Assembly (NCBI RefSeq): GCF_009931435.1
Contig: NZ_CP043414.1
Source: Escherichia coli
GTDB lineage: Bacteria > Pseudomonadota > Gammaproteobacteria > Enterobacterales > Enterobacteriaceae
Length of the DNA: 64,000 nucleotides
Reading direction: 5' to 3' (one strand)
Positions 60,777-63,139 of the stretch are shown in pieces. Position 1 is the first letter of the stretch. Each line of letters starts with the position of its first letter. The position numbers and the translations under genes were made by a program. Below the pieces are notes generated by a model that was given only the letters and a program-made list of their open reading frames with translations, ran no database searches and was not told the DNA's origin.

Positions 60777-61682
60777 TTCAACGAGATGACAGACACACAC
60801 TATATTGGCCGCTTTGCCCCCTCTCCTTCCGGCGAGCTTCATTTTGGCTCTCTGATTGCCGCGCTTGGAAGCTTTCTACAGGCTCGCGCCCGGCAAGGTC
60901 GCTGGCTTGTTCGCATTGAAGATATCGATCCGCCTCGTGAAGTTCCCGGTGCCGCAGAGACCATCCTGCGCCAGCTGGAACATTACGGTTTACACTGGGA
61001 CGGCGATGTTCTCTGGCAATCGCAACGTCACAACGCCTATCGCGAAGCACTCGCATGGTTACATGAGCAAGGGTTAAGTTATTACTGCACCTGCACGCGC
61101 GCACGTATTCAAAGCATTGGCGGTATTTACGACGGTCATTGCCGGGAGTTGCATCATGGGCCAGAAAACGCTGCTGTACGTATTCGCCAGCAGCATCCGG
61201 TCACCCAGTTTACTGACCAGCTGCGCGGCATTATTCATGCCGACCAAAAACTGGCGCGGGAAGATTTTATTATTCATCGTCGTGATGGTCTATTTGCCTA
61301 TAACCTGGCGGTGGTCGTTGACGATCACTACCAGGGCGTGACAGAAATTGTTCGTGGCGCGGATTTGATCGAACCCACGGTGCGCCAAATCTCGCTGTAC
61401 CAGCTTTTTGGCTGGCAGGTGCCAGATTACATTCATTTGCCACTGGCACTTAATCCACAAGGCGCTAAACTTTCCAAGCAGAATCATGCGCCTGCGTTGC
61501 CAAAAGGCGATCCTCGGCCGGTGTTAATCGCGGCACTTCAATTTCTGGGCCAGCAGGCAGAAACACACTGGCAGGATTTCAGCGTCGCGCAAATTCTCCA
61601 GTCAGCCGTCAAAAACTGGCGGCTCACCGCAGTGCCTGAGTCGGCAATTGTAAATTCAACATTCTCAAATGCGTCATGCTGA
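60756..61682 (+). CDS. gluQ: Glutamyl-Q tRNA(Asp) synthetase GluQ (YadB)
   Basis: 308-aa ORF with class I aaRS-like motifs; first ATG lies in loop of dksA terminator hairpin, alternative ATG at 60786 would give 298 aa. Confidence 0.88.
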
Positions 61683-61741
61683 GCTATGATTAGCCGCTAT
61701 TTTTTTGTCCTGAATGATGTTTGACACTACCGAGGTGTACT

Positions 61742-63139
61742 ATTTTTACCCGAGTCGCTAATTTTTGCCGCAAGGTGCTAAGCCGCGAGGAAAGCGAGGC
61801 TGAACAGGCAGTCGCCCGTCCACAGGTGACGGTGATCCCGCGTGAGCAGCATGCTATTTCCCGCAAAGATATCAGTGAAAATGCCCTGAAGGTAATGTAC
61901 AGGCTCAATAAAGCGGGATACGAAGCCTGGCTGGTTGGCGGCGGCGTGCGCGACCTGTTACTTGGCAAAAAGCCGAAAGATTTTGACGTGACTACTAACG
62001 CCACGCCAGAGCAAGTGCGCAAACTGTTCCGTAACTGCCGCCTGGTGGGTCGCCGTTTCCGTCTGGCTCATGTGATGTTTGGCCCGGAGATTATCGAAGT
62101 TGCGACCTTCCGGGGACATCACGAAGGTAACGTCAGCGACCGTACGACCTCCCAACGCGGGCAAAACGGCATGTTGCTGCGCGACAACATTTTCGGTTCC
62201 ATCGAAGAAGACGCCCAGCGCCGCGATTTCACTATTAATAGTCTGTATTACAGCGTGGCAGATTTTACCGTCCGTGATTACGTTGGCGGCATGAAGGATC
62301 TGAAGGACGGCGTTATCCGTCTGATTGGTAACCCGGAAACGCGCTACCGTGAAGATCCGGTACGTATGCTGCGCGCGGTTCGTTTTGCCGCCAAATTGGG
62401 CATGCGCATCAGCCCGGAAACCGCAGAACCGATCCCACGCCTGGCTACCCTGCTGAACGATATTCCTCCTGCACGCCTGTTTGAAGAATCGCTTAAACTG
62501 CTACAAGCGGGCTACGGTTACGAAACCTATAAACTGTTGTGTGAATACCATCTGTTCCAGCCGCTGTTCCCGACCATTACCCGCTACTTTACGGAAAATG
62601 GTGACAGTCCAATGGAGCGGATCATTGAGCAGGTGCTGAAGAATACTGACACGCGTATTCATAACGATATGCGCGTCAACCCGGCGTTCCTGTTTGCCGC
62701 CATGTTCTGGTATCCCCTGCTGGAAACAGCACAGAAAATCGCGCAAGAGAGCGGCCTGACTTATCACGACGCTTTCGCGCTGGCAATGAACGATGTGTTA
62801 GACGAAGCCTGCCGTTCACTGGCGATCCCGAAACGGCTAACCACTTTAACGCGTGATATCTGGCAGTTACAGTTGCGCATGTCCCGCCGTCAGGGTAAAC
62901 GCGCATGGAAATTACTCGAACATCCGAAGTTCCGTGCCGCTTATGACCTGCTGGCACTGCGTGCTGAAGTAGAACGCAACGCCGAGCTACAACGTCTGGC
63001 GAAATGGTGGGGTGAGTTCCAGGTTTCCGCGCCGCCGGACCAAAAAGGGATGCTTAACGAACTGGATGAAGAACCGTCACCGCGTCGTCGTACTCGTCGC
63101 CCGCGCAGACGTGCGCCGCGCCGTGAGGGCACCGCATGA
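61742..63139 (+). CDS. pcnB: Poly(A) polymerase I
   Basis: 465 codons from ATT at 61742 ([12 protein letters not shown]...) with GAGG 6 nt upstream; first in-frame ATG is ~55 codons downstream; nucleotidyltransferase GGxVRD motif ([13 protein letters not shown]). Confidence 0.9.

Follow-up and report, generated by a model that had tools for sequence, protein, structure and literature searches.

The locus examined here raises the question of where translation of pcnB, the gene of poly(A) polymerase I (PAP I), begins. The gene lies in a stretch of 64,000 nucleotides assigned to Escherichia coli (hereafter the window), and its conserved protein N-terminus is opened by an ATT triplet, while the first in-frame ATG comes only at codon 52. 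The evidence assembled below makes it very probable that pcnB is translated from this non-canonical AUU at 61742 and that the 30S subunit is placed there by the strong Shine-Dalgarno (SD) sequence GAGGUG 4 nt upstream. The features on which the argument depends are collected in Table 1.

Table 1. Features of the pcnB start region in the window (positions of the whole stretch).
Feature	Position	Strand	Remark
pcnB CDS (poly(A) polymerase I)	61742..63139	+	465 codons + TGA stop; starts with ATT
ATT (AUU) initiation codon of pcnB	61742..61744	+	invariance; annotated start in K-12
Shine-Dalgarno sequence GAGGTG	61732..61737	+	ends 4 nt before ATT; anti-SD duplex -9.7 kcal/mol
In-frame TGA closing the pcnB frame upstream	61715..61717	+	sequence, ORF list
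Upstream in-frame TTG, codon -7	61721..61723	+	two codons after TGA; judged to be 5' untranslated leader
In-frame GTG, codon 12	61775..61777	+	judged internal
First in-frame ATG, codon 52	61895..61897	+	51 codons downstream of ATT
Codons 1-9 of pcnB	61742..61768	+	near-invariant including synonymous sites
Promoter-like TTCTCA-17 nt-TATGAT	61662..61690	+	consensus scan

The identity of the gene is well delimited. In the window region 59.4-63.6 kb, the + strand carries sfsA, dksA, gluQRS, pcnB and folK, and the order gluQRS-pcnB-folK is conserved and matches that of K-12 and of strain RMDEC465. From ATT to the stop, pcnB measures 1398 nt and encodes 465 aa, with TGA at 63137-63139 according to the ORF list. 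The protein scores 997.7 bits against the PcnB equivalog NF008634 of NCBIfam (cut-off 702), with residues 1-464 lying on profile positions 1-468 of 469, and 525.5 bits against TIGR01942. Three Pfam families, PF01743, PF12627 and PF12626 (PolyA_pol head, RNA-binding domain and arginine-rich C-terminus), are each found above their gathering scores, the poly(A) polymerase structures PDB 3AQK-3AQN are matched with E = 1e-283, and identity to the E. coli PcnB cluster representative P0002 is 99%. On equivalog, domain set and gene order, the gene is identified by its sequence as the orthologue of PcnB, that is, poly(A) polymerase I. At its 3' end, the start of folK overlaps the pcnB stop as ATGA (63136-63139), which suggests that folK translation may be coupled to that of the weakly translated pcnB. 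Beyond folK, the segment 63613-64000 is AT-rich and non-coding, and it is followed by a fimbrial protein gene in RMDEC465.

The origin of the window deserves a remark. Among 5,424 E. coli genomes, a 601-nt query (61500-62100) has a 100% identical counterpart only in RMDEC465, the identity to the remaining 5,423 being 95-99%. PcnB (61742-63136) is also 100% identical to that of Escherichia albertii NBRC 107761. By these comparisons, the window looks Escherichia albertii-like rather than like typical E. coli, although the pcnB regulatory region is base-identical to that of K-12. Over the 250 nt of 61660-61909, which take in the gluQRS end, the leader and the first 56 codons of pcnB, identity to K-12 MG1655 is 100%. 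Promoter, leader, first 56 codons, ATT, SD, spacer and the gluQRS-pcnB-folK order are therefore all shared with K-12 pcnB (b0143), and nothing in the regulatory region differs, the difference being that the window belongs to another lineage. On the strength of this identity, the experimental support for the AUU start can be regarded as transferred from K-12.

Several observations in the window itself point to ATT 61742. It is followed by TTT ACC CGA GTC GCT AAT TTT TGC CGC AAG GTG, which supplies 11 residues after the initial isoleucine codon, residues 2-11 being the ten that precede GTG12. Position 1 of the NCBIfam PcnB equivalog aligns with residue 1 of the ATT-initiated protein, and the RefSeq CDS of pcnB begins with this ATT in K-12 as well as in RMDEC465, where it maps to 61742-63139. 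Among codons 1-9, ATT is the lone triplet within one base of AUG. When the 20 nt upstream of ATT were paired with the 16S anti-SD, the duplex energy of -9.7 kcal/mol was obtained; the corresponding values are +0.1 kcal/mol for TTG(-7), +0.5 for GTG12, -2.6 for GTG29, -6.8 for GTG31 and -4.0 for ATG52. As a background, 1.1% of sampled window positions reach -9 kcal/mol or better. The sequence-only reading had likewise placed the conserved PcnB N-terminus at ATT 61742, and the GAGG that it described with 6-nt spacing is present (61732-61735, spacer TGTACT, 61736-61741), the fuller match being GAGGTG with 4 nt before ATT. It had also correctly singled out TTG 61721, two codons past the TGA, as the sole canonical start that the frame has from this stop to ATT. 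Its estimate of about 55 codons to the first in-frame ATG was somewhat too large, since this ATG is codon 52. Its claim that pcnB must start at a non-AUG codon holds as far as the AUU start is concerned, but "must" was an inference that passed over the in-frame GTGs at codons 12, 29 (61826) and 31 (61832), which had to be excluded because they are canonical starts.

The comparison of pcnB loci from 80 Enterobacteriaceae species bears directly on the choice of start. The pcnB start is ATT in all 80 and also in two genomes that are more distant; GAGGTG occupies positions -10 to -5 in all 80, while the 4-nt spacer between them occurs in 10 variants. The sequence upstream of the SD diverges among the 80 species, with indels. 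TATGAT is kept in 70 of the 80, and its distance to ATT spans 36-72 nt and does not change in steps of three. No in-frame ATG, GTG or TTG exists between the preceding stop and ATT in 43 of the 80 species, and in some species an in-frame stop stands just 5-8 codons upstream of ATT; codon -7 is TTG in 26 of the 80. An invariant SD-start pair after a variable leader is, judged from these alignments, the signature of an untranslated leader. Farther away, the arrangement GAGGTG-N4-ATT is kept in L082 (62% protein identity, 1.08-Mb genome) and in L083 (67% identity). For homologues of 45-55% identity, single examples show gene-caller starts at ATG or GTG; in one of them (L086, 55% identity), the codon equivalent to AUU is ATC, and the called ATG (at about position 301) corresponds to codon 29 and has an AGAGG SD of its own. 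The distant taxa were sampled through representatives at 50% identity, with DNA for five of them, as the 120 protein matches listed were all at least 86% identical.

Within the coding sequence, the amino acids of codons 1-13 are 100% conserved, and codons 10, 11, 13 and 15-17 change synonymously only. Translation is thus indicated to begin upstream of GTG12, because these codons vary only in ways that leave the protein unchanged. The amino-acid conservation of codons 1-9 cannot separate coding from RNA-level constraint, because their synonymous sites are invariant as well, and the coding argument upstream of GTG12 therefore rests mainly on codons 10 and 11. At codon 29, ATG is found in 70 of the 78 Enterobacteriaceae species used for the synonymous-codon analysis, and GTG in Escherichia (61826-61828).

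Three other starts have been used or proposed for this gene, and each has left traces in databases or in the literature. Initiation at the in-frame UUG at 61721 would give a 472-aa protein, and this UUG comes ahead of every other canonical start that follows the in-frame stop; entries of this length exist for, among others, Salmonella, Cronobacter and Kosakonia, the codon at this very position is ATG in two Salmonella subspecies, and UUG is named as the pcnB start in the introduction of PMC3561954, a paper that is inconsistent on this point and gives AUU in its discussion. This start is nevertheless highly improbable, as UUG lacks an SD, TTG is found there in just 26 of the 80 species, in 43 of the 80 the frame upstream of ATT offers no canonical start, and the sequence before the SD is divergent, with indels; the extra residues PRCT of the UUG-initiated form are the SD and spacer read as codons, and neither RefSeq nor the NCBIfam model uses this start. 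A start at GUG codon 12 (61775), as predicted by automatic gene callers, would give a 454-aa protein. GTG12 is present in all 80 species and 454-aa forms beginning with MLSREES are common in metagenome-derived databases, but it too lacks an SD, the invariant SD lies 43 nt upstream, which is much too far, the 11 codons before it are 100% conserved as protein, with third-position synonymous changes only at codons 10 and 11, and the call has been superseded in RefSeq; this possibility is just as remote as that of UUG. A somewhat different case is a 414-aa isoform made from ATG52 (61895) besides the AUU-initiated protein, which would arise under special conditions from the internal sigma-S promoter pS1. 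Activity of this promoter downstream of AUU was observed in vitro and in ppGpp-null cells at stationary phase, and two bands in anti-PAP I Western blots as well as a putative SD and AUG have been noted (PMC2939334); in the window, GAAGGT precedes the ATG and forms a weak SD. Against this, ATG52 is kept in just 23 of the 80 species, the others having GTG at codon 51 or neither, pS1 needs unusual conditions, the shorter PAP I isoform is called unproven by its own proposers (PMC2939334), and the crystallised PcnB core begins at residue 28, so that a start at codon 52 would remove 24 residues of the core. We consider such an additional isoform unlikely, though less so than the two other starts. 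An ATG termed "+1(b)" is discussed in PMC2939334, whose primer PS1.rev was matched by eye to 61877-61900, and ATG52 is most likely the start proposed by Liu and Parkinson in 1989.

Database entries reflect this diversity of start calls. PcnB N-termini of four kinds are deposited, with 465 aa (ATT), 472 aa (upstream TTG or ATG), 454 aa (GTG12) and 447 aa (ATG19) (P0002, P0013, P0003, P0101), and they show how often gene callers miss a non-canonical start. In two Salmonella enterica subspecies, diarizonae (L021) and arizonae (L022), the in-frame ATG at codon -7 stands 21 nt upstream of ATT (about 1480-1482 of the locus) and has no SD; this ATG probably explains the widespread 472-aa annotation of Salmonella PcnB. 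For pcnB of the Enterobacteriaceae, a simple annotation rule follows from the comparison, namely that the start is the ATT of GAGGTG-N4-ATT.

Upstream of the AUU start, TTCTCA-17-TATGAT may represent pB, the main promoter of pcnB. It overlaps the gluQRS stop codon (61680-61682) and lies inside the fragment that was footprinted for pB (PMC2939334). A perfect -35 hexamer, TTGACA (61721-61726), includes the upstream TTG; Escherichia, Citrobacter and some further genera have kept it. As a promoter, this hexamer was rejected, for the consensus scan found no acceptable -10 at 16-18 nt from it.

The AUU start of pcnB has a history in K-12. Binns and Masters (2002, Mol Microbiol 44:1287, pmid 12068810) are said to have established that pcnB is translated from AUU in E. 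coli K-12 and that this limits its expression. The finding made in the window is correct and ordinary, because the AUU start was demonstrated for K-12 in 2002 and the reference annotation already has it. Later papers describe the result consistently in the passages that mention it (PMC2939334, PMC3561954, PMC9764084, PMC5499595, 10.1101/063800, PMC4447247, PMC9410913), and these passages say only that pcnB expression is limited by the AUU codon. Such mentions suggest that initiation-site and start-swap experiments on pcnB were carried out in K-12 long ago, and evidence from phylogeny for AUU starts among other Proteobacteria was, as relayed in PMC3561954, already given by Binns and Masters. 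Searching the literature for N-terminomics of pcnB, or for ribosome profiling of its initiation sites, gave reference-list mentions only. The further statement of the sequence-only reading, that starting at AUU is an established means to keep poly(A) polymerase low and is preserved in this strain, agrees with the identity to K-12 over 61660-61909 and with what the citing papers say of it. The pcnB ribosome-binding site is termed "poor" in PMC3561954 and PMC9764084, which contrasts with the 6-bp anti-SD match present in the sequence.

The way in which an AUU start would keep PAP I scarce can be outlined as follows. GAGGUG would position the 30S subunit at AUU, the initiator tRNA would pair imperfectly with this codon, and IF3 would discriminate against it, as it does against such codons. 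According to the work on K-12, initiation at this AUU is inefficient, which the imperfect pairing together with IF3 discrimination would explain, and the inefficiency holds PAP I to some tens of molecules per cell, overproduction being toxic. About 30-50 molecules of PAP I are present per cell, and surplus PAP I polyadenylates tRNAs and kills the cell (PMC3561954). The role of IF3 as the discriminating agent at pcnB is one that we infer from infC and from general IF3 biology. If IF3 does discriminate at pcnB, PcnB output could rise as the IF3-to-ribosome ratio falls.

Two other genes help to place this mechanism. Apart from pcnB, infC alone among E. coli genes has a confirmed AUU start, and AUU limits the expression of both infC and pcnB (PMC5499595, 10.1101/063800, PMC4447247, PMC9410913). 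Expression of infC rises when IF3 activity falls (PMC5499595, PMC9410913). In contrast to pcnB, where PAP I exerts no feedback on its own initiation, infC is autoregulated, as its product IF3 is itself the factor that rejects AUU. The two also differ in range, since infC starts with AUU or AUC in all bacteria (PMC5499595), whereas the AUU of pcnB was seen here in the Enterobacteriaceae and two distant genomes. In Enterococcus faecalis, ebpA likewise has a rare ATT start that attenuates protein expression (PMC4447247), but gene and organism are both unrelated and the likeness is an analogy only.

A second constraint became visible at the 5' end of the coding sequence. Over 78 species, the synonymous sites of codons 1-9 (ATT TTT ACC CGA GTC GCT AAT TTT TGC) are almost invariant, and this frozen block includes the rare codon CGA. 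Mean synonymous-codon entropy is 0.145 bit for codons 1-10 vs. 0.94 for pcnB, the lowest value of 376 ten-codon windows, and folK, taken as a control, has no such dip at its 5' end (0.997 vs. 1.10). As far as the alignments indicate, this synonymous freezing is a real constraint, and it is one that was not met in the literature. Tentatively, and with rather more doubt than confidence, AUU may be seen as one part of a longer cis element that would extend from GAGGUG to codon 9 (-10 to +27, 61732-61768). The frozen block may provide a context that initiation at AUU requires, set how sensitive initiation is to IF3, or be bound by a protein or a small RNA; overlap with pS1, or selection common to gene 5' ends, could account for the constraint as well. 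According to another explanation, the main cause of low output is a hairpin in which the SD is hidden by pairing to codons 2-4 and AUU sits in the loop; the same hairpin would explain the frozen sites. The minimum-free-energy fold does pair CG-GGUG with UACC-CG and leaves the SD an unpaired probability of 0.21, ACC CGA is kept in the 78 species and in the reduced 1.08-Mb genome, and the "poor" ribosome-binding site of the literature (PMC3561954, PMC9764084) was counted in its favour. This hairpin is nevertheless improbable and was rejected, because 31% of shuffled sequences fold equally well or better, it has no covariation, as nothing varies, and it is not formed in the more distant L083. Its energy is just -4.7 kcal/mol, the 104-nt leader has no folding advantage over shuffles (z = +1.0), and the invariance of codons 5-9 would be left unexplained.

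The AUU start of pcnB is the textbook second case of a non-canonical start in E. coli, infC being the first. It contributes to keeping a toxic RNA-tailing enzyme scarce, and finding it again here adds no new biology. The frozen codons 1-9 are a small lead on how weak start codons work, and if the frozen block is an element of the initiation region, the synthesis of PAP I would be coupled to the growth state of the cell.
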